A DNA stretch of 64,000 nucleotides from an uncultured Myxococcales bacterium (lineage in GTDB: Bacteria; Myxococcota_A; UBA9042; DTJE01). The DNA lies in the NCBI GenBank assembly GCA_903857665.1, contig CAIOFV010000084.1:16294-80293 (forward strand), in the 5' to 3' direction. This document shows positions 3,337-32,753 of this stretch, in pieces (position 1 is the stretch's first letter; the number at the start of each line of letters is the position of its first letter). The position numbers were made by a program, and so were the translations under genes. The notes beneath the pieces were generated by a model. That model saw only the letters and a program-made list of their open reading frames with translations, made no database searches and had not been told where the DNA came from.

Positions 3337-5975
3337 TCAACGCGCCCTGTGGGGGGGAGGAGGCGCGGACCGGGCGGGGTCGTCGGGCCAGGAGTGGCGG
3401 GGGTAGCGACGCCTCAGCTCGCGGGCCAGCGACGGGTAGTGCCGTTCCCAGAACCCGGCCAGATCGGTCGTCACCTGCACGTCGCGGCCCCCGGGCGACA
3501 GGAGGTGGAGAACAACCGGCAGGGCGCCGTCCATCACCGCGGGCCCCCGGGCCAGGCCGAAGAAGTCCTGCAGGCGCGACGCGGCGCTGGGCGGCTCGCC
3601 CGCGGGATAGTCGATCCGGAGGGTCCGCCCTCCGGCCAGCCGGAACGTCGCCGGCGCCAGGGCGTCCAGAGCGCGACGCGGCCCCGTGCCCAGGCGGGCC
3701 GACAGGGCCTCCTGCACGCCACGACGGCGGACGTCGGCCAGCGATCGGCAGCCGCGGCAGGCATCCCGCCGCACGGCATCGAGGTCGTCGTCGTCGAATG
3801 CCGGCAGGCCCAGGTCGGGACGGCGGCCTCGCAGGAAGGCCACGCGGGCCAGGAAACCGGCAGGATCCTCCCGTTCCGCGGCCAGCGAGGCGATGGGCCG
3901 ATCCCGGAGCCCCGCGGCCAGCGCGTCTGCGACCGATGCCGGGTCGCCCTGGAACGGGCGCTCCTCCAGCACCAGGCAGTCGTAGACCAGGCGCCGTACG
4001 GATTCCACCCGGTCGGCCCCCGGCAGGAACCGCACCTCGATGGTTTCGCGAACCTCGTCGAACCGGCCCTCCAGCAGATCGTCGTCGTCCAGGGGGCGGG
4101 CGGACCGCACCCGGAGGACCTGGCCGCGCGCGCCGGCCCGCTCGGTGGCGTCCGCGGCGATCACCAGGCGCCCTTCGGGGAGCAGCGCGTCGGCGGGAAG
4201 ATCGGCGGTCCCCCCGGACGACAGGGCCAGTTCCAGGGCCCCCGCCCGTGCCAGCCCGGGAAGGATCGATCGACGCACGCGGCCCACGCGATCCGGAAAC
4301 CCGGCCAGCAGGGACAGGGTCAGCACGCGGCCCAGATCGCCCGGCCCGGCGCCCGATCCGCCCTGGACGACGGCCGCCGGGCACAGCCCTGCCCTGCGCG
4401 CCTGGGCCTCCATGTGCACAGCCGCCCGGCGGACCACGGACACCGCCGCAGGGTCGAGGTCCGCATGCCGGCCGCCGGCGCCCAGCCCCGCCACCGTTTC
4501 GACGGGATCGAGGAAGCCGTCCGGAAGGTCCGACACGGGCGCCGCCCCGGAGCCGGGCCCTGGCATTGCGTGCCCCATCAGCAGGCGCCGCGACCCCGTC
4601 GAGCGACGCACGTCCCGCTCGGCCAGCACCGCCGCCAGCAGGCACCTTCCGGGAGGCGCCCGCGGGCGGCGGCCTCGGCGACCAGGCGCCCCAGGCGCGG
4701 GTGGGCAGGCAGCCGGGCCACCTGCACGCCCAGGTCGGTCACACGACCGTCGGAACCCGCCAGCCCAAGCCGCTGCAGCAGCCCCTCGGCGGCCTCCAGG
4801 GCGGCTCGCGGAGGCGGGTCCAGCCATGGCACGCCGGTCGCGGGTTCGATCCCAGCGGCATGCAGAAGCAGCACGGCATCGGCGAGATCCGCCCGGGCGA
4901 TTTCGGGCGCGTCGGCGTCGGGCCGCCCGTCGTACTCCGATCGCGTGAACAGCCGCACGCAGCACCCGGGACGCACCCGCCCGGCGCGACCCGCCCTCTG
5001 CTCGGCGGACGCCTTCGACACCGGCTGGACACGCAGGGACGGCATGCCCGACCAGGGGCTGTGGACCAGGCGACGCGCCAGCCCGCTGTCCACCACCGCC
5101 GTCACGCCTTCCACCGTGATGGAGGTTTCGGCGACGTTGGTGGCCAGGATCACCTTGGGACGATCGCCCGGCAGCACCGCCCGATCCTGCTCCTCGGGCG
5201 GCAGGTCGCCGTGCAGCGGCAGGACCAGGCGCCCGCTCCGCCTCGCCAGGTCGGCGCACGCCTCCCGGGCCCGCCGGATCTCGGCGGCCCCGGGCAGGAA
5301 CACCAGGATGTCGCCGTGGTTCGCCGCGACCAGGCGCTCGACCGATTCGGCGACCCGCGCCTCCAGGGGCCTCGCGTCCGGACGCGCAGCGTATTCGACC
5401 GCCACGTCGAACCGCCGCCCTTCGGCCCGCACCGCCGTGGCATCCAGCGTCGCCGCCAGGCCCTCGGCGTCCAGGGTCGCGGACATGATCACCAGCAGAA
5501 GGTCCGGCCGGGGTCCCGCCCGCAGCCGCCGCAACAGCGCCAGGGCCAGGTCCGCGTCCAGGCTGCGTTCGTGGAACTCGTCCAGCACGACCGCGCCGAC
5601 CCCCGCCAGCGTCGGGTCGGCCAGCAGCCTCCGCACCAGCACGCCTTCCGTGACGTACCACAGGCGCGTGGACGAGCCGCCCACCTCCTCGAAGCGCACC
5701 TTCCACCCGACCGTGCCGCCCGGCGCCTCCCCGCGCTCGGCCGCCACGCGCCGGGCCGCCATGCGGGCCGCCAGCCGCCGCGGCTGCACGACGATGACCT
5801 CGCCTTGGCCGCACAGGCCCGCATCCAGGATCGCCGGGGGGACCCGCGTGGTCTTGCCCGACCCGGGCGGCGCGGCCAGCACCAGAACGGGGCGCCGCCG
5901 CAAGGCCTCGATCACGCCGGGCAGGACATCGTCCACCGGCAGAGGCACGCGTCCGAAGGCCCCCGTCCCCGTCAT
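3337..5975 (-). CDS. hrpB: ATP-dependent RNA helicase HrpB (DEAH box); apparent -1/+1 frameshift near 4635-4655
   Basis: N-terminal 465 aa (ORF 4578..5975) has GSGKTT Walker A, DEFHER, SATLD and helicase C motifs. The C-terminal HrpB domain ([13 protein letters not shown] ... RLQDFFG ... [33 protein letters not shown]) is in a different frame (ORF 3337..6009). The two frames meet around ...[13 protein letters not shown] / [11 protein letters not shown]... Confidence 0.75.
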
Positions 5976-6037
5976 CTGCTCCCCATTCCCGTCCCGGGCG
6001 GCCTATCATACCCGGGTCGCCTGTCTGGGGAAGTTCG

Positions 6038-19510: not shown

Positions 19511-19517
19511 CCGATGC

Positions 19518-19545
19518 TTGACCTGCCTTCGCCCTCGGCTACAAT
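19518..19545 (+). promoter_or_regulatory. near-consensus sigma70 promoter TTGACC-16-TACAAT between gcvPA stop and the downstream lipoprotein gene
   Basis: -35 19518-19523. -10 19540-19545. GGAGG 19566-19570. GTG 19577. Confidence 0.4.
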
Positions 19546-19576
19546 GCGAGGGGAACGAATTCCGCGGAGGTGGCCG

Positions 19577-20134
19577 GTGTCTGCAAGCCGTTTCACGGCC
19601 CTGGTGGGGGGGGCTGCACTTGCCCTGCTGCTCGTCGCCTGTCAATCCAGGAACGTCTTCGAGCAGTGCGCCATGACCTCGAAGATGCAGGCCGACTGCA
19701 AGACGGCCATCGCCGCCGGCAGCGACCAGTGCAGCGAAGCCGAGGTCTTCTGCTACGACTCGTGCGTGGTGAAGGACCATCCGCAGTGCATCGAGGGCCC
19801 CTGTGTCCTGTACGAAAACCGGGACATCAACGCCTCGCAGCCGGCCAACTCGGCCTCGGCCTCGTTCTGCACCGTTCCCTGCCATGGCGAGGCCTGCCCG
19901 ACGGACGCGACGTGCCTCAAGATCCTCAGCCTCAAGCTCGCCTGCACCCAGGACTCGGACTGCACGGTCAACTCGCCGTGGTCCCGTTGCGAAACGCCCC
20001 GCTTCTGCGAAACCAGCAAGAAGGAATGCGAAGTGGCTGCGGATTGCGCGGGTCAGGCCTGCGTGGCCGACGACACGGCGGCGAAGTCCTGCTCGTTCAA
20101 GTTCTGCATTCCGAACATCTACACGCCCGGCTGA
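19577..20134 (+). CDS. small Cys-rich lipoprotein
   Basis: GTG start, GGAGG at -6. Lipobox ALLLVACQS. 24 Cys in about 160 aa. An ATG at 19544 is an alternative start. Confidence 0.6.
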   Translation: MSASRFTALVGGAALALLLVACQSRNVFEQCAMTSKMQADCKTAIAAGSDQCSEAEVFCYDSCVVKDHPQCIEGPCVLYENRDINASQPANSASASFCTVPCHGEACPTDATCLKILSLKLACTQDSDCTVNSPWSRCETPRFCETSKKECEVAADCAGQACVADDTAAKSCSFKFCIPNIYTPG

Positions 20135-22027: not shown

Positions 22028-23788
22028 TCAGGCGCCTCGACGCAGGACGCGCCCAGGCAACGGGTCCGGGTGGAAGCCGTCCGGGTCCACGACGGCCTGC
22101 CCGTTGATGAACACGGTGTGGATGCCCTCGGGGAAGTGCGCCGGATCCTGCGCGGTGGAATGCGAGGACAGGCGACGCTCGTCGAACACCACCAGGTCGG
22201 CGAACGCCCCGGGACGCACGCGACCGCGATCGCGGATGCCCATCTGGTCGGCCGGCAGGGACGTGGCGCGGCGTATGCCCTCGGCCATCGTCACGACCCC
22301 GCGATCCCGGGCATACCCGCCCAGCCAGCGCGGGTACGCGTCGTAGAACAGGTGCGACGGCATGCCGAAGCCCAGCAGGATCGTGTCGGTAACGATCGAA
22401 ACATGCGGGTTGCCCAGGGCCGCCAGCACCGATCGCTCGACGAAGGGATCGCCCGGGTACGTCGCGGTTTCGAACACCAGCACGCGCCCCTGCTCTTCCA
22501 CCAGCAGGTCGCACGCCACGTCGAAGGGGTGCCGCCCCGATTCGTCGCCGATCTGCTGAAGGCTTTTTCCTTCGAGCCGCTTGTTGTGCGGCAGCGTCAC
22601 GGACATGATGAACGCCGCGTCCCAGCCCATCACCTTGAACACGTTGAAGGACCACGAGTCGCGCCCACGGTGCGGCCACGCCACGTCCCCGTTCTCGATG
22701 CTCCGCCGGATCTCGACGCGCTGGACCGGGTCCTGCAGGCGCCCAAGCATCGCCCGGATGCCGCCCTGGAGGGTCCAGGGCGGGAAGAACGCCAGCAGGT
22801 GCGTGAACCCCGCCGAGGTCGGCATCCCGTCGAACCCGATCGGCTCGCCGGCGTCGGCGGCCTTGAAGGCCTTCTCCATCCGACTGGCCAGCAGCCCGTC
22901 GATCGGGATGGGCAGCGGCAGCGTTTCGTACAGGCGGCTGGCCAGGTTGATGGCGTGGTGCGCCAGGCGGTCCAGCGGGTAGTTCAGCCGGGGGATGCAG
23001 AAGAGGTGGCTGACCTGCAGCGGGACCTCGGCGGCCCGGCACACGTCCATCACCTCGTCCAGCGCCTGGACCATGGTGTCCGAGTTGTACGACCGCAGGT
23101 GCGACGTGAAGATGCCGTTGTACCGGTGGATGACGCGGGCCAGTTCCGTCAGTTCCAGGGAATCGGACGCCAGGCCCGGGAAGTACATCAGGCCGGTGGA
23201 CATGCCCAGCGCGCCCGCCTCCATGCAGTCCGCCAGCATGCCCTTGAGGGCCCGCAGGTCCACCGGATCCGCGGTTTCGTTCCGGTCGCCCATCGCGTTC
23301 AGACGGAGGATGCCGTGGGGCGCCAGGAACCCCGCGTTCAGCAGCGTGCCCTGCGATTCGCACGTGTCCAGCATCTCGCCGAACGTGCTCCAGTGGACGT
23401 TGTCGTCCTGGGGCGCCCCCAGGAAGAAGTCGAAGAACGTGAAGATATCGGCCTTGTGCTTCGGGAACACCGGCGCCATCGACACGCCGCAGTTGCCCCC
23501 GACGAACGTGGTGATGCCCTGGCGGACCAGCGGTTCCAGGATCCCCGCGTGATCCGGCCGGACCAGGGTCATGTCCGCGTGCGAGTGGGCGTCGATGAAG
23601 CCCGGGCAAAGCGCCAGGCCGCGGGCGTTCACGCGACGGGCGGCGGTCGCGTCCTCGAGGGTCCCGATGGCGGCGATGCGGTCACCCTTCACGCCGACGT
23701 CGGCGGTGAAAGGCAGGCGTCCCGAGCCGTCGTAGACGCGGGCCCCTTCGATGACGACGTCGAACCGCGGAGCCACCTGGATTGCCAT
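22028..23788 (-). CDS. N-acyl-D-amino-acid deacylase (D-aminoacylase) family amidohydrolase
   Basis: FIDAHSHAD metal-binding start. ...PHVSIVTDT..., the D-aminoacylase/amidohydrolase_3 family. 586 aa. Confidence 0.8.
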   Translation of the reverse strand: MAIQVAPRFDVVIEGARVYDGSGRLPFTADVGVKGDRIAAIGTLEDATAARRVNARGLALCPGFIDAHSHADMTLVRPDHAGILEPLVRQGITTFVGGNCGVSMAPVFPKHKADIFTFFDFFLGAPQDDNVHWSTFGEMLDTCESQGTLLNAGFLAPHGILRLNAMGDRNETADPVDLRALKGMLADCMEAGALGMSTGLMYFPGLASDSLELTELARVIHRYNGIFTSHLRSYNSDTMVQALDEVMDVCRAAEVPLQVSHLFCIPRLNYPLDRLAHHAINLASRLYETLPLPIPIDGLLASRMEKAFKAADAGEPIGFDGMPTSAGFTHLLAFFPPWTLQGGIRAMLGRLQDPVQRVEIRRSIENGDVAWPHRGRDSWSFNVFKVMGWDAAFIMSVTLPHNKRLEGKSLQQIGDESGRHPFDVACDLLVEEQGRVLVFETATYPGDPFVERSVLAALGNPHVSIVTDTILLGFGMPSHLFYDAYPRWLGGYARDRGVVTMAEGIRRATSLPADQMGIRDRGRVRPGAFADLVVFDERRLSSHSTAQDPAHFPEGIHTVFINGQAVVDPDGFHPDPLPGRVLRRGA

Positions 23789-23869
23789 GGGAGCCTCCGT
23801 GCCGGTACCCGAGGCGACAGTGTAGCAGACATGACGCGCTCGACGCGATGCGCAAACCCGGGCCCGGCG

Positions 23870-25075
23870 TCACCCGTTCCCTGATCGAAGGGTCCGTGCC
23901 ATGCACCGGGCGAGGTTCCCGTCGTCGTCCCGATCGTGCATCGAGCCCCCCTGGCAGGCCGCCCATTCCCCGCACGACGCGCACGGCCCGCGGCGCAGGC
24001 GGGCGCGGTCGCGGAACGGCTGGAATCGGTTCTTCCACACCTCGGACACGCGGTCGGACCGGGCATCGCCCTGGACGTTGAACCCTGAATGGATGACGGG
24101 GCACCCCACGATGCGGCCGTCGTGCTCGATGCCCAGCACCGTGACGCCGGCCCGGCAGTACAGGAACGACCCGCGCAGCAGACCCCCCTCCCACTCCAGG
24201 CCGCACCACCCGTCGTCCACGAACTCGATTTCGATCGCACGGCGGCCCTCGCGGAACGCGACGCGCTGCTCGGCCACCCACGACAGCACCCGGCGCAGGG
24301 CGGCGGGGGTGAGCACCTCGTCGGGCGCGTCGGCCGCCCGTCCCACGGGGAAGATCGCGGACAGGCGCGCGAATCGGATGCCCAGGTCCTCGAAGCGCTG
24401 AAACACGGCCGGGACCTCCGGCAGGTTCAGCGGCGACGCCGCGCAGATGGTCGTGGTGCCCAGGTCCGGGTATCGCCGCTGCACGTACTCGATGGCGCGC
24501 CAGGTGTGCGCGCCGGCCGAGGCGTCGCCCCGGAGCACCCGCTGGGCCTCGCCGATCCCGTCCACCGAGATCGTGGGGCACTTCATGCCCGCGTCCACCA
24601 GCCGATCCAGCAGCGACAGGTCGCGGCCGTAGGCGACGCCGTTCGAGTCCACCGCCACGGTGCGGAATCCCAGGCGCACCATGTACGCGACGATCTCGAC
24701 CAGGTCCGGCCGCAGCGTCGCCTCGCCGCCGGTGATGCCGATCATGATCCCCGCCGGGTCGAAGTCCTCCGCCATTTCCGCGAAGACGCGCTTCACCTCG
24801 TCGGTGGACAGGTCGTCGCCCGGGCTCTCCTCGGAAGGCAGCACGCAGTACCGGCAGCGCAGGTTGCAGCGCCGGGTGGCCATCCAGATGACGAAGCGCA
24901 GCCTGGGGTTCGCCAGGATGTACCGGAAGTTCGAACGCCACTCGTCCAGGCTGGCGCGAAACGCCGGGTCCCGCACGCGGGCCGCCTGGATCGCGGGCAG
25001 CGCCTGGTCGAACGCCTGGGAAGGGGCGCAAGGCTCGTCGCGGGGATCGCGGGGATCGCGAGGCTCGTCCGGCAT
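23870..25075 (-). CDS. radical SAM enzyme with C-terminal SPASM/twitch-like Cys cluster
   Basis: CNLRCRYC (CX3CX2C) plus ITGGEATL. C-terminal C-x17-C...GPCASCGEWAACQGG...C auxiliary-cluster motif. ATG (25075-25073) overlaps the TGA of the upstream lipoprotein gene. Confidence 0.8.
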   Translation of the reverse strand: MPDEPRDPRDPRDEPCAPSQAFDQALPAIQAARVRDPAFRASLDEWRSNFRYILANPRLRFVIWMATRRCNLRCRYCVLPSEESPGDDLSTDEVKRVFAEMAEDFDPAGIMIGITGGEATLRPDLVEIVAYMVRLGFRTVAVDSNGVAYGRDLSLLDRLVDAGMKCPTISVDGIGEAQRVLRGDASAGAHTWRAIEYVQRRYPDLGTTTICAASPLNLPEVPAVFQRFEDLGIRFARLSAIFPVGRAADAPDEVLTPAALRRVLSWVAEQRVAFREGRRAIEIEFVDDGWCGLEWEGGLLRGSFLYCRAGVTVLGIEHDGRIVGCPVIHSGFNVQGDARSDRVSEVWKNRFQPFRDRARLRRGPCASCGEWAACQGGSMHDRDDDGNLARCMARTLRSGNG

Positions 25076-25935
25076 CACGACGTCTTCACGCAGGCGTTGG
25101 TGATGCCGACGTTCGCGCACGTCGAGCCGTCCGGGCAGGGCGTTCCCGCCGGGTCGCACACGATCGGCAGGCAGACCTCGGTGGCGACGATGCAGAACAT
25201 GTCCGCCGGGCAGCCGTCCCTGCAGAAGTTCTGGGGCGACGTGCAGGCCGCGTCCGACGAGCACGGGGCCCAGTAGCCCCCGGCGACCTTCGTGGGCTGC
25301 CGGACGCAGGTCTTCATCATCGACCCTGCGGACTTGTTGTCGTAGGGCATGCAGGTCGATCCGTCGGGGCAGGCGTCGCTGGCGCCGCACGCCTTCGGCA
25401 TGCACGCCGGGATGCCGCACCCGGGCACGGCGACGATGCAGATCGCCTCGTTGGTGCAGTAGTACTCCTGGCTGCAGTCGCCATCGACGAGGCACGCGGC
25501 CTGGAATCCGCCCGCCGGCGGGACCGGCGCCACGTCCGGGCCCGGGTCGAACGGTGCGATCGCGATGGCGTCGGGAGGCAGGTCCGCCGGGCCCGGGTCG
25601 AGCGGGGCGATCGCGATCATCTCCGGCGGCGCGTCCACCGGGCCCGGATCGAACGGCGCGATGGCGATCAGTTCCGGCCACGCGTCCACCGGCCCCGGGT
25701 CGAAGGGCGGCGCAATCGCGATGACTTCCGGGTCCACCCAGCCGTCGGGCATGTCCGGCCGATCGGCGACGATGTCCGTGGGGGCGTCGGCCTTGTCCTT
25801 CTGGCCGTCGCTCGGGCACCCGGTCAATCCCAGCGGCGCCAGGATCATCATCGCGCCCCCCGTGTAGAGGCGGCGGCGGTCCAGCCACCTGGGGCGGCGC
25901 GCACCGCGCGCGGAGCCATCGCTTCCCTTCGCCAT
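25075..25935 (-). CDS. lipoprotein with four 16-aa Pro-rich tandem repeats (IAIAPFDPGPVDAPPE) and a 20-Cys C-terminal domain
   Basis: RBS GGAGGGG. n-region RPRWLDRRR, lipobox LGLTGC. Repeats then about 140 aa with 20 Cys. The long upstream part of ORF 25075..26910 is non-coding. Confidence 0.7.
   Translation of the reverse strand: MAKGSDGSARGARRPRWLDRRRLYTGGAMMILAPLGLTGCPSDGQKDKADAPTDIVADRPDMPDGWVDPEVIAIAPPFDPGPVDAWPELIAIAPFDPGPVDAPPEMIAIAPLDPGPADLPPDAIAIAPFDPGPDVAPVPPAGGFQAACLVDGDCSQEYYCTNEAICIVAVPGCGIPACMPKACGASDACPDGSTCMPYDNKSAGSMMKTCVRQPTKVAGGYWAPCSSDAACTSPQNFCRDGCPADMFCIVATEVCLPIVCDPAGTPCPDGSTCANVGITNACVKTS
25515..25728. repeat. 4 x 48-bp in-frame tandem repeat (encodes the 16-aa IAIAPFDPGPVDAPPE units)
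   Basis: Period-48 nucleotide repetition visible in GGGCCCGGGTCGA(A/G)CGG(C/G)GCGATCGCGAT units. Confidence 0.5.
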
Positions 25936-26040
25936 GTGTCCCCTCCCCCCGGGTTGCCCTGGAGCCATGATACAAAAATGGAAGGGACACCGTCCACGTT
26001 TCCGGCTACCTTCGCCCCATCTTCCCCGGAGGGCACCACC

Positions 26041-26745: not shown

Positions 26746-27395
26746 ACCGCGACCGTCTGTTCCCCCTGCCCTTGAAAAGCATCTTCCAGCGGCGACAAGA
26801 AACGGATATCCTTGGTCACGGTACCCGGGCGACGGGACGCCGCAGGACTGTTTCGAGGGCCCGGGGGCGGGCCCGAACGGGCCGCGGCCCGGGCGCAGGC
26901 CGGCAGGCATGCCGCCCGTCGCGCCACGGAAGGCATGCGAGTGCCTGGCATGGAAGCCGGGTGGCAGGGCGATGGCAAGGAACTTGCAGAATCGTCCTCG
27001 GAAGGTGTTGGTCGTTCGGGGGTCCGAATGGCCAACCCATTAAAAGAGTGAACGACTGTAGGTGGACGGGTCGGGTCCTGGAAGCGCGCAGGGTGCGCAA
27101 CAAATGCGCGCATGGGGCAATTAATGTCAGTCCTTGCCCAGGTGGTTGAACGCAACAATCGTGTCGGGGAGTCCCCACTGCGACGGGACAACGGAAGGCT
27201 CCCGACCCTGAGCGGGCGACCTGTTCGGACACCAACCGAACCTCCAACGCGTCGTGCTTCCCAGAAATTCCTGGAGGGATCGTTTGCTTCCTCCGGAAAT
27301 GACTGCGACCGATGTTCCAGGCTTCCAGGTGCTCTGGCCGGGTGTCCGCTCGATGGCGTCGAGGACGGGGTGCGGCACGTGTCGGAGGTACAGTC

Positions 27396-30300
27396 ATGAG
27401 CAGGACGCGTCTCTGCGGGTTCCTTTTCTCGGGGGCGTTGCTGCTGTGGAGCCTCGATGTGCCGGCCGTCGAGGACGTGCCGCCCGGGATCCGCGTGGCT
27501 GGCGTTCTTCGGAACGCGGCCGGAGAACCCGTGACCGGGACCATCCGCGTCACGTTCCGGATCTACGCGAATGCCTCGTGTACTCCATATAACGAAGCGG
27601 TTGCCGACTACGACAACCAGTGCCTTTGGTGGGTGGGGCTCCCCCAGGACATGCAGGTCGTGCAGGGCGCCTTCACGGCGAGCGTGCCTTCGACCCTGGA
27701 TCTGGCGCTGAATCCCACCCTGAACTGGGAGGCGTGGTTCATCAACAACTCCGCTTCGCCCTACCTGGGAATCGAGGCCGCCGGCCGGATCCTCCAGCCG
27801 CGCAATGCCATCACATCCAAGGGGTTCGCGATCCAGTCCAGGCATGCCGAGGAGGCCGACGTGGCCTTCGACCTGGCCTGCGACGGCTGCGTGAACGGAA
27901 CGCAGGGCACGATCGCCGCCGGCGCGATTTCCAACCGCCACGTCAAGACCGACGCGGCGATCGCCGCGACCAAGCTGGCCGGCGTCGCGCTGGCGGGCCA
28001 CGGCCACACCGGCTACCTTCTGGCCAACCCGGCCCTGTCCCAGTCGGCGTCCGTCGATCTGGCCAGGACCGTGACGGCTTCCGATTTCGTGGACCAGGCC
28101 AACCTGAACTACTACGTCGATCCGTACCCGCCCGTCGGGACCACTTCCGCCCATCTCCGAGGGACCGTGCTCCTCGGGCAGAATCCCGTGGCGTCACCGC
28201 CCGCGGATGCCCTGCTGTCCGTCGGAACGACCGGGCAGTTCCAGGTCAGCACCCTCGGCCAGGTCACGATCGCGGGCCTTCCCTACACGTGGCCTCTGAC
28301 CGCCGGTGTTTCCGGGCAGTTCCTGTCCAATGACGGGTTCGGCACCCTTTCCTGGGCCGATCCCGTCCCGGCGGCAGGCACCGGTTTCGTGACCCGCTTC
28401 GCACCCAACGTCCTGGTCACCCGCGAGGTCGTCGGGACCACCGGCCAGATCGCCGTCGCCGACGGGCTGGGCCAGGCTGCCGATCCCAGGATCTCCCTGG
28501 TATCGAATCCCTACTTCCCGGGTACCGGCGCCCTGGGGCTCCCCTCCGGAACCGAGCTCCAGCGTCCCCAGAGCGGCATTTCCACGGGAACCCTGCGGTT
28601 CAACACGGACCGCTCGGCCCTCGAATACTGGGAAGGCTCGAAATGGATGTCGGTCGCCATGGACACCGACATCCTCAACGCGATGCCCGTTGGCACCATC
28701 ATGGCCTTCGCGGGGTCGATTCCGCCATCGACATGGCTCGTGTGCGACGGTTCGATCATGCCTCGCAACATCACGGTCGATGGGGTCTCCCAGCCGGATC
28801 CGTTGTTCGCGGTCATCGGGACCGCCTGGGGCGCTCCGACCTCAGGCACGTTCAACATCCCCGACCTCCGGGGCCAGTTCCTTCGCGGTGTCGATACCCT
28901 GGGTGACGTGGATCTGGACCCCGCCGGGTCTACCGGACGCAATTTCCTGAACCCGGGGGGCAATACCGGGCGCAAGGTCGGTTCCTTCCAGATGTCCGCC
29001 AACCAGGACCACACCCATTCCGCCACCCCGGTGCTGGCACCGTCGCAAGGCTCGCTCCGCGGCATGACGTGCGAGCAGACCGGGTCCGGCGCGGCGCTGG
29101 TTCCGGCGTCGAACCTGTCCGGTTCCGCGGCGCTGGCGGCCTTCTTCGGCAGCGATTCCACGCTTCGCGCCGGCGGGTTCCTGGCCAACGCCGCACAGAT
29201 TCCCGCTCCCACGGGCAACGTCTGGATCCAGAACGATCAGATCAACCTGTCCGGGGAGGCCGTCCCGGTCAATGCGGCCGTGACGTGGATCATCCGGGCG
29301 CGATCCTGTGCGAACGGCGCGTGCAGCGCGGCGTGCCCGGCAGGAATGGGCGACTGCCTCGACCTCAGCGACCCCCAGAACCCGAAGCCAGGCCAGGATG
29401 GCCTGTGCGAAACGGTCCTCACGACCGACGAGAACTGCGGCTCCTGTGGCGTTGCCTGCACGCTGCCGAACGCCTTGACGTCCTGTTCGACGGGCACGTG
29501 CCATCTGGCTTCATGCAACAACTTCCCCGCCACGACCCGGCATTCCTATGGCAATTGCGATGGTGTCGAATCGAACGGCTGCGAAACGTCGCTGGACCAA
29601 CTGAACAACTGCGCCGACTGCCTTGTGCCGTGCACGCGCCTCAATGCAACGCCCAGTTGCTCGAACGGCCTGTGCCACATCGATTCCTGCAACCTTGGCT
29701 GGGGGAACTGCAACAGCAACGACCCCGACGGCTGCGAAACCTCCCTCCGGACGATCACCAATTGCGTGACATGCGGCACGCCCTGTGCGCGGGCCAACGC
29801 CAGCGCCACCTGCGCCGGCCTGCAGTGTCTCACCGACACCTGCATCGCCCCGTGGGGCAACTGCGATGCCGGGCTGCCGGGCGGCGACGCCAACGGCTGC
29901 GAAACGAACCTGAACATCACTCCCGCGCACTGCGGCAGTTGCCCGCTGTCGTGCGTCTCGACCCATGCCACGACCACGGGTTGCAGCGCCGGCAAGTGCG
30001 TCTACTCGTGCTCTGCCGGATGGGCCGATTGCTCGTCGGCCCTCAACGACGGGTGCGAAATGAACATATGGGACTACAACGGCACCAGCGCCCGGACCCA
30101 CTGCGGAACGTGCACGAACGTCTGCAACACGGCCCACAACACGCCGATCTGCCCGTCCGGCTCCTGCGTCCCCGTCTGCGACGCGATGTGGGACAACTGC
30201 GATGGCGATTCGACCAACGGATGCGAACAAACGCTGCAGGACATCTATGACCCGATTACCGGCGCCCTGCAGGTTTCGGCAGTGGCCAATTGCGGCGGAT

Positions 30301-31073
30301 GCCGCACGACGTGCAGTTCGAACCACCAGAATCCCAAGTGCGTCGGAGGCCAGTGCGGGAGGATCGGGGCGTGCATCGGCCTCTATGGCGACTGCAATGG
30401 ATTGATCGCCGACGGCTGCGAAACACCCCTGACGACCCTGACGAGCTGTGGCTCCTGCTACCACCCCTGCTCGGGCCTGCCGAATACGGATCAGCACACG
30501 TGTGCCGACGGGACCTGCCAGCCCGCGACGTGCGTGAACGGCTTCGGCGACTGCAACCATGTAGTCGGCCAGGCCTCGGACGGCTGCGAATACAACTTCA
30601 CCAGCCCGCTGGTCCAGTTGCCGGGCACCTATCTCGGATCCGCCTGCTCGGACGACGACACCACGGACTGGCTCCACGGCGGCGCCTGGTCGTGTCCCGA
30701 CCCGGGCTGGTCCACCGTCTTCCCGGGCGGTTCGTACCAATCGACCTACACGGGAAACAAGACGGCCTACTACTACGCCGAGTGGCGCGAGTGCAACGAC
30801 CAGAACATCCTGGGCATGTACCCCTGCTCCAGGACGATCCATGGGCATGCCACGCTCGTCCCGCCCCCCGGTGCCGACTATGGCCTGTACGTCTATGACA
30901 TGGGTGGCAACTACGTCACCGGAGCCAACAACGGCGCAGGCGTGCAGGCTGATGTCGATTTCTACGCCGGCGGCAGCGTGACCTACGAGATCCGGGTTGT
31001 CTTCTTCAGCGGGACTCCGTGCAACGATCACTGGACCCTGACGGTTCTGCACAAGAACTATGACCATTTGTAG
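27396..31073 (+). CDS. giant secreted protein P1: phage tail-fibre/tail-collar-like N-terminal region + about 8 Cys-rich modules + C-terminal beta-sandwich-like domain (1225 aa)
   Basis: RBS GGAGG-7-ATG. Signal peptide MSRTRLCGFLFSGALLLWSLDVPA. Motif GTLRFNTDRSALEYWEGSKWMSV (phage fibre repeat-like). Collar domain MPVGTIMAFAGSIPPSTWLVCDGS...LFAVIGTAWG...FNIPDLRGQFLRG. Cys modules of type GNCD...DGCET....NC..CG..C. Confidence 0.8.
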   Translation: MSRTRLCGFLFSGALLLWSLDVPAVEDVPPGIRVAGVLRNAAGEPVTGTIRVTFRIYANASCTPYNEAVADYDNQCLWWVGLPQDMQVVQGAFTASVPSTLDLALNPTLNWEAWFINNSASPYLGIEAAGRILQPRNAITSKGFAIQSRHAEEADVAFDLACDGCVNGTQGTIAAGAISNRHVKTDAAIAATKLAGVALAGHGHTGYLLANPALSQSASVDLARTVTASDFVDQANLNYYVDPYPPVGTTSAHLRGTVLLGQNPVASPPADALLSVGTTGQFQVSTLGQVTIAGLPYTWPLTAGVSGQFLSNDGFGTLSWADPVPAAGTGFVTRFAPNVLVTREVVGTTGQIAVADGLGQAADPRISLVSNPYFPGTGALGLPSGTELQRPQSGISTGTLRFNTDRSALEYWEGSKWMSVAMDTDILNAMPVGTIMAFAGSIPPSTWLVCDGSIMPRNITVDGVSQPDPLFAVIGTAWGAPTSGTFNIPDLRGQFLRGVDTLGDVDLDPAGSTGRNFLNPGGNTGRKVGSFQMSANQDHTHSATPVLAPSQGSLRGMTCEQTGSGAALVPASNLSGSAALAAFFGSDSTLRAGGFLANAAQIPAPTGNVWIQNDQINLSGEAVPVNAAVTWIIRARSCANGACSAACPAGMGDCLDLSDPQNPKPGQDGLCETVLTTDENCGSCGVACTLPNALTSCSTGTCHLASCNNFPATTRHSYGNCDGVESNGCETSLDQLNNCADCLVPCTRLNATPSCSNGLCHIDSCNLGWGNCNSNDPDGCETSLRTITNCVTCGTPCARANASATCAGLQCLTDTCIAPWGNCDAGLPGGDANGCETNLNITPAHCGSCPLSCVSTHATTTGCSAGKCVYSCSAGWADCSSALNDGCEMNIWDYNGTSARTHCGTCTNVCNTAHNTPICPSGSCVPVCDAMWDNCDGDSTNGCEQTLQDIYDPITGALQVSAVANCGGCRTTCSSNHQNPKCVGGQCGRIGACIGLYGDCNGLIADGCETPLTTLTSCGSCYHPCSGLPNTDQHTCADGTCQPATCVNGFGDCNHVVGQASDGCEYNFTSPLVQLPGTYLGSACSDDDTTDWLHGGAWSCPDPGWSTVFPGGSYQSTYTGNKTAYYYAEWRECNDQNILGMYPCSRTIHGHATLVPPPGADYGLYVYDMGGNYVTGANNGAGVQADVDFYAGGSVTYEIRVVFFSGTPCNDHWTLTVLHKNYDHL

Positions 31074-31130: not shown

Positions 31131-32753
31131 ATGAGACAGCGTTGGCTTTTCCTGGCGTGCGTGGTTGGCGCCCTTTCTGCCTGGGTTCCGGAAGCGGGGG
31201 CGGCGATCGGCCAACCGGTCCCCAATGCCCTGACGATCCAGGGGGAGTTGCGTGACGTGCTGGGGGCCCCGCGGTCGGGATCCTTCGACCTGACGGTCCG
31301 CCTGTACGCTGACAGCACCTGCTCGGGCGGGGCGGGGTGCCTTCTGGACGCGTACACCTTCACGGGCGTGCCCGTCGTGGGCGGCCGGTTCGCCGTCGAT
31401 CTGCAAGCCCGGCAGGTCTTCCGGAACCAGAGCCAGGTCTGGGTCGAATTCCAGGTGGGCGCCGATACGCCCCTCGCGCGGTCGGCGGTCACCTCGGTCG
31501 GCTTCGCGGTCCAGGCGAACCACGCAGAGGAAACGCATATCGCGACCGAGCGGCTGGAGTGCGCCGGCTGCGTGACCGCCAACGAACTGGCCGACAACAG
31601 CCTGACGGATGCCGACTTCGCCTCGAACGCCGCCATCACCTGGGACAAGCTGGCCGGTGTTGCGAAGGACGTCCATGTCCACAGCGAGTTCGTCATCGCG
31701 ACCACCCCGGCCACTCCCCAGGACGCCGGCTTCAGCATCTCGGGCGCGATGAGCGCCATGGGGTTCATCGACAAGAACGCCGCCGCCTACTTCGTCGATC
31801 CGTCGGAACCCGCCCTGTCCGCCCAGTTCGCCGGCAAGGTGTCCATTGGTTATACCGCTGCTCCTCCCGGGCTCCTCGGGGTCGGCACGAACTTCGGTGT
31901 GGACGCCTCCGGCAACATGAAGGTGCGTGGCGTCTCCTATACCTGGCCGACGGTGCAGGGCGCGGGCATCCTGAAGGATCTGGCCGGGAACGGCACGCTT
32001 GCGTGGTCGTCGGCGTTCCCCAGCCTGTCCTCGAACGGCGTGCTGGCCAAGACCTCCGGAGGCCCCTGGGCGGGACGGACCATCACGGGGACTGGCGGCA
32101 TCTCGGTCGATAACGGGGACGGCGTCAACGGCAACCCGACGATCGGTATCGCGGCAGACGCAATGCTGTCCGGAACCGCCGGCGTGGTGCTTCCCACCGG
32201 GGATAGCACCCGTCCCACCGGAGTGCCCGGAGGCACCGTTCGCTTCAACTCCACGGGGCGGGTCATCGAGTACTTCGACGGCTCCCGCTGGCGCACCGTC
32301 ATGTCGAAGGCCCTGGTGGCCGCCGCCTTCCCGACGGGGATGATCGCCGCATTCGGCGGCGATCCCGCCCAGGGCGCCACGGTTCCGCCGGCCGGTTGGC
32401 TCACCTGCGACAGCCTCACCAACCCGGTGAGCCGCCTGGCACCGAACAACGCCCTCTTCAACGTGATTGGAACGCGGTGGGGGCGTGGCAACGGTACCAA
32501 CACGTTCAACCTGCCCGATCTTCATGGGCGATTCGCCCGTGGATGGGACCCGAGCGCGGTCGTCGATGCGGATGCGGCCAGTCGCTTCGCGCTGTACGCG
32601 GGCGGCGAGGTCGGGAACAAGATCGGAACGTACCAGGGCACGGCAATCCAGAAGCACAAGCACGACGGCACGGGGAACTTCAACAACCTCAATTCCGCCG
32701 TGGGTGAGAGCCGTCCCGTGAACGCGTACGTGTACTTCGTGATCAAGCGCTAG
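31131..32753 (+). CDS. secreted protein P2: short paralogue of P1/P3 (tail-fibre/tail-collar-like, no Cys-module array; 540 aa)
   Basis: RBS GGAGGTGGG. Signal peptide. Shares the N-terminal module (RLYADSTC..., KLAGV..HVH), GTVRFNSTGRVIEYFDGSRWRTV and the collar domain MIAAFGGDP...WLTCDS...LFNVIGTRWG...FNLPDLHGRFARG. Confidence 0.75.
   Translation: MRQRWLFLACVVGALSAWVPEAGAAIGQPVPNALTIQGELRDVLGAPRSGSFDLTVRLYADSTCSGGAGCLLDAYTFTGVPVVGGRFAVDLQARQVFRNQSQVWVEFQVGADTPLARSAVTSVGFAVQANHAEETHIATERLECAGCVTANELADNSLTDADFASNAAITWDKLAGVAKDVHVHSEFVIATTPATPQDAGFSISGAMSAMGFIDKNAAAYFVDPSEPALSAQFAGKVSIGYTAAPPGLLGVGTNFGVDASGNMKVRGVSYTWPTVQGAGILKDLAGNGTLAWSSAFPSLSSNGVLAKTSGGPWAGRTITGTGGISVDNGDGVNGNPTIGIAADAMLSGTAGVVLPTGDSTRPTGVPGGTVRFNSTGRVIEYFDGSRWRTVMSKALVAAAFPTGMIAAFGGDPAQGATVPPAGWLTCDSLTNPVSRLAPNNALFNVIGTRWGRGNGTNTFNLPDLHGRFARGWDPSAVVDADAASRFALYAGGEVGNKIGTYQGTAIQKHKHDGTGNFNNLNSAVGESRPVNAYVYFVIKR

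Follow-up and report, generated by a model that had tools for sequence, protein, structure and literature searches.

A conserved gene pair for a cysteine-rich lipoprotein and a radical-SAM/SPASM enzyme, its candidate maturase, in uncultured Myxococcota

Enzymes of the radical S-adenosylmethionine (radical-SAM)/SPASM class are best known for maturing short peptides; whole-protein substrates are few, notably the sulfatases and QhpC. What does such an enzyme do when its gene is coupled to that of a full-size lipoprotein? The question is raised by a 64,000-nucleotide stretch of DNA from an uncultured Myxococcales bacterium (assembly GCA_903857665.1, contig CAIOFV010000084.1, positions 16,294 to 80,293 of the forward strand), referred to here as the window, with a G+C content of ∼68–70 %. 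Three consecutive minus-strand genes fill positions 25935–22028: the gene of a lipoprotein precursor, the putative substrate (25075..25935; 286 amino acids (aa); open reading frame (ORF) and translation); that of a radical-SAM/SPASM enzyme, the probable maturase (23870..25075; 401 aa; Pfam Radical_SAM and SPASM); and that of a D-aminoacylase-type amidohydrolase (22028..23788; 586 aa; Amidohydro_3/Amidohydro_1, PRK09061). An original prediction, made from the DNA letters, had read them as a protein-modification operon; the three genes are real, and the coordinates of all three were confirmed from ORFs and translations.

The answer that we favour, with moderate confidence, is that the lipoprotein is the substrate of the enzyme. 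In a two-gene cassette the full-size exported lipoprotein would be the only plausible substrate, and the pair comes without a transporter or peptidase gene, in keeping with a substrate relying on its own lipoprotein signal. As to the chemistry, a thioether cross-link is put forward as a tentative and in itself doubtful proposal.

The pairing was assessed by synteny in loci with enough upstream sequence. The lipoprotein gene lies directly 5′ of the enzyme gene in 15 of 15 non-redundant loci with enzymes of 57–97 % identity (the window, L001 (= L002 = L007), L003, L004, L005, L006, L008, L009, L010, L044, L045, L047, L053, L054 and L090), and the spacing of the two genes ranges from a small overlap to a gap of up to ∼35 nt. 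A reverse look-up from the lipoprotein homologue P0046 likewise led to an adjoining radical-SAM gene. The pair was found in at least six different flanking contexts: with rph and the amidohydrolase gene (window, L006 and the L001 group), IF2/NusA (L004), RsmB/M50 peptidase and a CCG Fe–S protein (L003), an MFS and OEP/RND efflux system (L090), and other genes (L005, L009 and L010). When the ORFs of eight contexts were compared all against all, no third shared gene emerged beyond the pair and frame shadows. By gene order, the conserved unit is two genes, a self-contained cassette of uncultured freshwater/groundwater Myxococcota, and the lipoprotein/radical-SAM pair is the genuine, tightly coupled unit that had been proposed. 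Homologues of the enzyme are scarce and form ∼30 clusters (90 % identity) at 60–91 % identity, after which identity drops to 41 %, 36 % and ∼30 %; a 97 % identical enzyme is encoded on the metagenome contig L044. The genomes that bear the enzyme are metagenome-assembled genomes of uncultured Myxococcales, Deltaproteobacteria or Myxococcota, some of them from lake or groundwater samples.

At the junction of the two genes in the window (TCG-TGA-TGC), the TGA stop codon of the lipoprotein gene and the ATG start codon of the enzyme gene share one base. The two genes would be co-transcribed, and with this overlap the enzyme gene would be translationally coupled to the lipoprotein gene. The predicted overlap of stop and start is there, as a 1-nt TGATG and not as the 4-nt ATGA that had been described. 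An in-frame GTG stands one codon upstream of the ATG of the enzyme gene.

The enzyme carries the hallmarks of its class. The CX3CX2C motif (C70/C74/C77) and the GGE motif (G116-G117-E118) are both invariant; Pfam PF04055 Radical_SAM was matched with E = 4e-18 (66.6 bits; cutoff 29.5) and PF13186 SPASM with 24.6 bits (cutoff 21.5) over residues 307–368. The AlphaFold2 (AF2) model (predicted local distance difference test (pLDDT) 92.5) has alternating β strands and α helices and matches radical-SAM structures. The SPASM/twitch-like auxiliary cluster of the original prediction needs one amendment. Seven C-terminal cysteines are conserved (C290, C307, C325, C365, C368, C374 and C392), and C307…G-x4-C325, C365-x2-C368-x5-C374 and C392 are present, but the SPASM motif is incomplete, with Ser378 at the CX3C position. 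This serine is invariant in the clade and gives GGS where SuiB has GGC. With C290 counted in, two clusters have seven Cys to share. One auxiliary cluster probably has an open site or a Ser-ligated site. In published structures the auxiliary clusters of anSME, SuiB and PqqE are fully ligated; an open Aux I site was proposed for the seven-Cys sactisynthase AlbA and demonstrated for CteB, in which it binds a substrate Cys, and non-Cys cluster ligands are known in LipA (Ser) and PqqE (Asp) (PMC6231123). Seven-Cys SPASM domains are also found in QhpD, CteB and Tte1186 (PMC10352776).

In the NCBIfam search the best model was TIGR04133 (rSAM_w_lipo), with 215.5 bits and E = 1e-63, below its cutoff of 425 bits; a nif11-class maturase came second (105 bits), ahead of AhbD, NirJ, the mycofactocin maturase and further models. 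On these scores the enzyme is a divergent sister clade of TIGR04133, which is its nearest named relative, and not a member. The family check of the enzyme thus placed it neither with cofactor-biosynthesis enzymes nor in an anSME clade with an unrelated partner; with this placement and the linkage at all 15 loci, the full-size lipoprotein as substrate of the coupled enzyme continues to look reasonably probable.

Secondary matches to the tetrapyrrole-modifying AhbC/AhbD and to NirJ (E = 1e-20 to 1e-25) speak for a different kind of link, in which the enzyme would make a small molecule or cofactor for the lipoprotein to bind, sense or export, or in which the connection would be regulatory. Cys-rich modules such as those described below could bind metals, and the case for modification of the lipoprotein is a genomic one throughout. 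We nevertheless consider such a link quite unlikely: the TIGR04133 match is ∼38 orders of magnitude better than that of AhbD/NirJ, no further biosynthetic gene is conserved with the pair, and translational coupling, together with a unique domain that occurs exclusively alongside one enzyme clade, is a classic enzyme–substrate signature.

The fold neighbours of the enzyme are SkfB, SuiB, anSME, PqqE, ChlB, BlsE and CteB, with query-normalised template modelling (TM) scores of 0.57–0.66; profile-to-PDB matches gave the same set of enzymes, and SkfB was the top match by sequence and by fold. By these comparisons the enzyme is one of the peptide/protein-modifying SPASM/Twitch enzymes, with none standing out. 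Its N-terminal 55 residues form two helices in the AF2 model (residues 20–35 and 37–55) with no β strands, and the N-terminal winged-helix recognition element (RRE) of enzymes acting on ribosomally synthesised peptides with post-translational modifications (RiPPs) is absent from this model. The helical N-terminal extension (∼50 aa) is specific to the clade and has a conserved C-[AS]-P-[ST].

This N-terminal motif invites an observation of its own. In the window it reads PCAPS (residues 15–19; window 25030–25015), and in some orthologues it is C-A-P-S-R, a perfect sulfatase-type motif; it also recalls the C-x-P that is invariant in each module of the lipoprotein. The motif could be a pseudo-substrate or the missing ligand of the auxiliary cluster to which Ser378 belongs.

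The lipoprotein begins with a signal peptide (aa 1–40; 25816..25935, minus strand) in which a conserved n/h-region, RRPRWLDRRRLYTGGAMMILAPLG, is followed by the lipobox L-T-G-C. In the window protein, the Arg-rich n-region RRPRWLDRRR and the h-region LYTGGAMMILAPLG precede the lipobox at residues 37–40, and the lipid anchor of the original prediction is thus supported at the sequence level. A lipobox-like x-x-[GAS]-C was found in 17 of 17 N-terminally complete orthologues, although some are non-canonical at positions −3/−2 (G-A-G-C, G-G-G-C); in the window protein the lipobox Cys, residue 40, comes a little later than is usual. These features class the window protein as a bacterial lipoprotein, a predicted substrate of signal peptidase II. 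The motif RR[RK]LY[AT]GGA[LM]M[VI]LAP..[GAS]C is nearly invariant in the 17 complete orthologues, while the linker behind it varies freely.

Export by the twin-arginine translocation (Tat) pathway was considered, as the conserved RR is attractive, but RR[RK]LY breaks the TatP pattern RR.[FGAVML][LITMVF] at its fifth position; Tat-signal hidden Markov models (HMMs) of Pfam and NCBIfam gave no match at E ≤ 10 when run against four lipoprotein N-termini. In the L010 lipoprotein, residues 4–36 gave a sub-threshold match to NF058595 (“lipo-invert putative C-terminal anchoring domain”; 18 bits, cutoff 37; E = 0.0025), which is probably a compositional effect of the signal peptide.

A Pro-rich stalk is encoded at 25536..25731 (minus strand). 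The four 16-aa repeats that had been described are a tandem Pro-rich array indeed, with a unit of 17 aa (51 bp) in 3.8 copies (Tandem Repeats Finder; 80 % matches, score 197). The unit in the window lipoprotein is P-E-x-I-A-I-A-P-[FL]-D-P-G-P-x-D-x-P; across orthologues the core is ..E-x-IAIAP-[FWYL]-DPGP.., with 0–6 copies under a strict IAIAP regular expression. Residues 1–140 of the lipoprotein have pLDDT values below 50 in the AF2 model, and the stalk region is probably disordered or extended.

The predicted 20-Cys domain was located at residues 148–284 and was resolved, by using a module HMM built from 40 orthologue segments, into two homologous modules of 10 Cys each: module 1 (aa 148–212; 25300..25494, minus strand; domain E = 4e-22) and module 2 (aa 225–284; 25084..25263, minus strand; domain E = 5e-10), which stops two residues short of the C terminus. 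The consensus of the 40 modules is C-x3-5-C-x5-C-x5-C-I-x-P...C-x-P-x2-C-x4-6-C-P-x-G-x2-C...C-V-R. All 20 cysteines of the mature domain (20/20) are invariant in 11 orthologues of 43–93 % identity and are therefore not there by chance. Orthologues have one, two or three modules of 55–80 aa with 10 or 12 Cys each, which amounts to 10, 12, 20 or 30–35 mature Cys in total, and the modules are the sole element of the mature protein found in every family member.

In the AF2 model the modules are small β-hairpins of moderate confidence (pLDDT ∼70–83 for module 1 and 69–88 for module 2). A Foldseek search of the Cys domain against the PDB gave no significant fold match (best E = 1.5); an EGF or knottin-like fold was discarded, as the weak matches that pointed to it are noise. 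No family was found for the lipoprotein in Pfam or NCBIfam (NCBIfam: none at E ≤ 0.1). When the Cys domain was run by exhaustive phmmer against 1.84 billion representative proteins, 10 matched at E ≤ 1e-3, all of the same architecture. A word-indexed search with the full-length lipoprotein returned 18 homologue clusters, all annotated as “hypothetical”, and eight of these, to judge by equal lengths of the longest contig, appear to lie on the same contigs as enzyme clusters; the same search with the Cys domain alone returned no homologue. By these searches the Cys module is a new domain family, limited to a small group of uncultured Myxococcota and almost exclusive to the cassette.

From these parts the following sequence of events may be drawn up. 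The cytoplasmic enzyme would bind the nascent lipoprotein precursor, still unfolded, directly in its barrel, since it has no RRE, much as anSME deals with sulfatases ahead of their export. Hydrogen abstraction by the 5′-deoxyadenosyl radical would then put a modification in each Cys module; the leading guess is a set of thioether cross-links from Cys sulfur to carbon, aided by the auxiliary cluster with its only seven Cys ligands. The modified precursor would be exported by means of its own lipoprotein signal, lipidated at Cys40 and shown on the Pro-rich stalk, and the remaining module Cys would form disulfides. Modification of the Cys modules is ranked first, with the thioether as the leading chemistry, because the modules are the sole mature element in every member and the seven-Cys SPASM domain resembles that of thioether formers. 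Taken to its full extent, and with the same reserve as the thioether itself, the proposal is of a protein-sized RiPP: an RRE-less enzyme would cross-link (C–S or C–C) each 10/12-Cys module before export, to give a knot on a Pro-rich stalk, and the TIGR04133 superclade would comprise unstudied radical enzymes that modify lipoproteins and recognise the lipoprotein N terminus.

Several points weigh against this account. Gene association and homology are the whole basis for a modification of the lipoprotein. The Cys count per module is even (10 or 12), as is expected of an all-disulfide extracytoplasmic domain, and no thioether donor/acceptor motif was pinpointed in the modules. The fold neighbours, with TM scores of 0.57–0.66 in all classes, do not separate the chemistries. 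Cross-linked domains would be an awkward cargo for the Sec pathway, and the twin-Arg n-region fits neither the Tat HMMs nor the TatP pattern. Related TIGR04133-type enzymes have partners that are not rich in Cys, and the L087 partner has its lipobox Cys only and no TIGR04134 match. Because the related partners are not Cys-rich, the shared target of the clade, if there is one, may not be Cys modules.

The relatives in question are the following. The enzyme P0032 (L087; 36 % identity) is a true TIGR04133 member (602.9 bits), and a gene for an 84-aa lipoprotein lies upstream of it with a 1-nt gap. The L049 enzyme (33 % identity; TIGR04133 349.9 bits) is preceded by a ∼139-aa lipoprotein with 30 bits to TIGR04134 (cutoff 39.8). 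The enzymes of L011 and L051 (33 % identity) are preceded by a ∼137-aa lipoprotein that gave no TIGR04134 match at E ≤ 10. Upstream of P0031 (L088; 41 % identity; TIGR04133 247 bits) there is a partial repeat ORF (PLTMANPNLG ×4); upstream of the L052 enzyme (37 % identity; TIGR04133 227 bits) a lipoprotein gene is absent. In L048 (32 % identity) a 389-aa periplasmic-binding-type lipoprotein is encoded ∼200 nt upstream of the enzyme gene, a neighbourhood that is probably coincidental. A lipoprotein gene ahead of the radical-SAM gene thus characterises the wider clade, though with exceptions. In their mature parts the partner lipoproteins of this wider clade bear no relation to one another.

Two details of these partners may be added. 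Common to the lipoproteins at L087:1104-1358, L049:2571-2990 and L011:5002-5868 are only the lipobox and a nearby Y-G motif (CYGP, CYGA or MYGVRP). The partial ORF directly upstream of P0031 (L088:3-176, plus strand) has at least four PLTMA[NS]P..G..(E)DKP repeats, which hints at short repeated motifs as targets in some branches of the clade.

The main rival explanation takes its start from here: the enzyme would modify the lipoprotein outside the Cys modules, at the lipobox-proximal N terminus or in the IAIAPxDPG stalk, and the modules would be plain disulfide knots. The near-invariant signal region ahead of freely diverging linkers fits such a target, as do the even Cys counts, which suit all-disulfide modules. 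The wider TIGR04133 partners share the N-terminal lipoprotein signal and not Cys-richness, and P0031 (41 % identity) is paired with a repeat protein that, in the visible portion of its ORF, lacks Cys. Short repeated motifs are, moreover, typical multi-site substrates of radical-SAM enzymes, as in the WGK- and triceptide-type systems. Still, L004 has a degenerate IAIAP repeat or none, and L054 does not conserve the aromatic position of the repeat; a modification in the signal peptide would be taken away by the cut of signal peptidase II; and the modules, not the stalk, are what every member retains in its mature part. On balance we regard a target outside the modules as rather unlikely, and modification within the modules is kept as the preferred reading.

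An invariant C-x-P in every module (CMPKAC and CLPIVC in the window; CLPRRC in some orthologues) is reminiscent of the sulfatase C-x-P-x-R. The anaerobic sulfatase maturases anSME/AtsB are SPASM radical-SAM enzymes without an RRE that modify full-size, signal-peptide-bearing sulfatases in the cytoplasm before export. An anSME-like oxidase, which would turn the Cys of the module C-x-P-x-x-C into formylglycine or another oxidised residue with no cross-link, finds further points of contact in the window enzyme: it lacks an RRE as well, its putative substrate is full-size and bound for export like those of anSME, and anSME is among its best fold matches (TM 0.63–0.72), with the highest target-normalised TM score (0.68–0.72). 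Such oxidation is nevertheless very unlikely in our view. The Arg of the sulfatase-type motif is unconserved in the module motif, the lipoprotein has no sulfatase fold, domain or Pfam match, and no anSME model is among the 25 best NCBIfam matches of the enzyme. The enzyme also has seven, not eight, auxiliary Cys, and the anSME clusters are fully ligated (PMC6231123), as against a Ser at one ligand position here.

The cassette would work in the manner of a maturase pair for a RiPP or a protein, and the cross-linking proposal may be set beside known systems. A literature search found no paper that mentions TIGR04133 and none on a system of a radical-SAM enzyme and a Cys-rich lipoprotein; TIGR04133 and TIGR04134 are hypothetical equivalogs of NCBIfam, defined in silico. 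The cassette shares with them the tight coupling of a lipoprotein gene directly 5′ of the radical-SAM gene (L087, L049 and L011), and with the TIGR04133 relatives P0031, P0032, L049 and L052 the lack of a Cys at the SPASM CX3C position. The window enzyme differs from TIGR04133 in its score (215 bits against a cutoff of 425), in its 36 % identity to the true member P0032 and in its extra conserved 50-aa helical N-terminal extension. The partner in the window clade is unrelated to TIGR04134; it is a protein of 170–390 aa that carries a stalk of Pro-rich repeats and unique modules of 10/12 Cys, whereas TIGR04133/TIGR04134-type partner lipoproteins are ∼85–140 aa long and not Cys-rich. The cassette would accordingly be a variant of the kind predicted in silico for TIGR04133/TIGR04134 and not categorically new, although its partner domain appears wholly different.

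A precedent for multiple Cys thioethers in a small exported protein is the maturation of the γ-subunit of quinohemoprotein amine dehydrogenase, in which the radical-SAM/SPASM enzyme QhpD introduces several such cross-links into the small Cys-containing protein QhpC before its export. QhpC belongs to an enzyme complex as one of its subunits and comes with dedicated peptidase and ABC exporter genes, unlike the window cassette, which has no accessory genes and in which the candidate for the substrate is a lipoprotein whose modules are repeated. QhpD is missing from the 25 best NCBIfam matches of the window enzyme. Like QhpD, the window enzyme has seven Cys in the SPASM region (QhpD: PMC10352776). 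With the sactipeptide and ranthipeptide maturases (AlbA, SkfB and CteB; SCIFF systems) the cassette shares a Cys-rich putative substrate encoded beside a SPASM/Twitch radical-SAM gene, and incomplete Cys ligation of the auxiliary clusters (PMC6231123). These maturases have an N-terminal RRE and act on leader-bearing precursors of ∼40–60 aa, usually with a protease or transporter; the window has an enzyme without RRE, a 286-aa lipoprotein candidate and no export or cleavage genes.

For protein-scale radical-SAM modification of lipoproteins, the cassette is a clean test case reduced to two genes, and it would give a first experimental handle on the TIGR04133/TIGR04134 systems. If the modification is true, it would be a new post-translational modification of bacterial surface lipoproteins and would raise the question of how a Cys-rich domain modified in the cytoplasm passes the export machinery.

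The third gene of the array was found to stand apart from the pair. Its product is an amidohydrolase of the predicted D-aminoacylase family (Amidohydro_3, E = 2e-20; PRK09061, E = 1e-40), and the gene starts, as had been stated, after an 81-nt gap behind the enzyme gene. In a triplet model the radical-SAM enzyme would epimerise residues of the lipoprotein and the amidohydrolase would act on the resulting D-residues; the family, the gap, the common strand and the fact that no terminator was predicted between the two genes in the window are in keeping with this. The gene adjoins the pair, however, only in the window, L006 and the L001 group (L044 was left out of this check), and is absent next to it in L005, with a 90 % identical enzyme, and in L003, L004, L009, L010 and L090, i.e. 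in six of nine lineages. Its product has no signal peptide and is cytoplasmic, and the epimerase EpeE/YydG has a profile E value of ∼8e-6 and ranks 35th or lower by fold, with SkfB, SuiB, anSME and PqqE far above. The triplet model is therefore extremely improbable: conservation of the triplet was not found, and the epimerase/D-aminoacylase logic loses its basis because the amidohydrolase is not part of the conserved unit. Rejected as a third component on these grounds and on the lack of a third shared gene in the eight contexts, the amidohydrolase is, by gene order, a neighbour that may be co-transcribed and lies outside the conserved cassette.

Giant Cys-rich proteins encoded on the plus strand (27312–31073, 31131–32753 and on to ∼50400) had been suggested as alternative substrates. 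Position 27312, where their cluster starts, is 1.38 kb away from the start of the lipoprotein gene, in line with the 1.4 kb that had been given. The proteins have phage tail-collar domains (PF07484, E ∼1e-14) and long Cys-rich repeat arrays, and the module HMM did not match any of them. Of the fetched loci, the 97 % identical L044 alone has a homologue; L006 has none, despite its otherwise identical synteny. The giant proteins were rejected as substrates of the enzyme on account of their tail-collar domains, the missing module match and the missing synteny in L006; they look like a strain-specific surface or contractile-system-like cluster. A second Cys-rich putative lipoprotein, of 206 aa, is encoded at 19514–20134 (plus strand), with the lipobox LLVAC and over 20 Cys in a C-x-x-D-x-D-C-like spacing. 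Pfam and NCBIfam assign it no family, and it was dismissed as a paralogue of the lipoprotein in the cassette, as it gave no module-HMM match. In the L090 context, a rhodanese / MauE-DoxX / DsbA-thioredoxin trio for the handling of disulfides or sulfur (L090:799-2620) lies ∼3.4 kb upstream of the pair and is not present in the other contexts.

An Rfam scan of 18–30 kb revealed no RNA element. The ATG of the lipoprotein gene is preceded, 5–6 nt upstream, by a GGAGG-type Shine–Dalgarno sequence, GGGAGGGG. A candidate σ70-like promoter (25967..25996, minus strand; TGGACG-18-TATCAT) matches the consensus at 9 of 12 positions, consensus match being its only basis, and is the sole such site in 4.4 kb, where shuffled sequences average 0.2. 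It sits in the divergent intergenic region of ∼100 bp that the lipoprotein gene has in common with rph (RNase PH). Elsewhere in the window, positions 4001–6000 form a G+C peak of 0.76, against the window average of ∼0.68, with a GC skew of −0.10 and an AT skew of +0.15.

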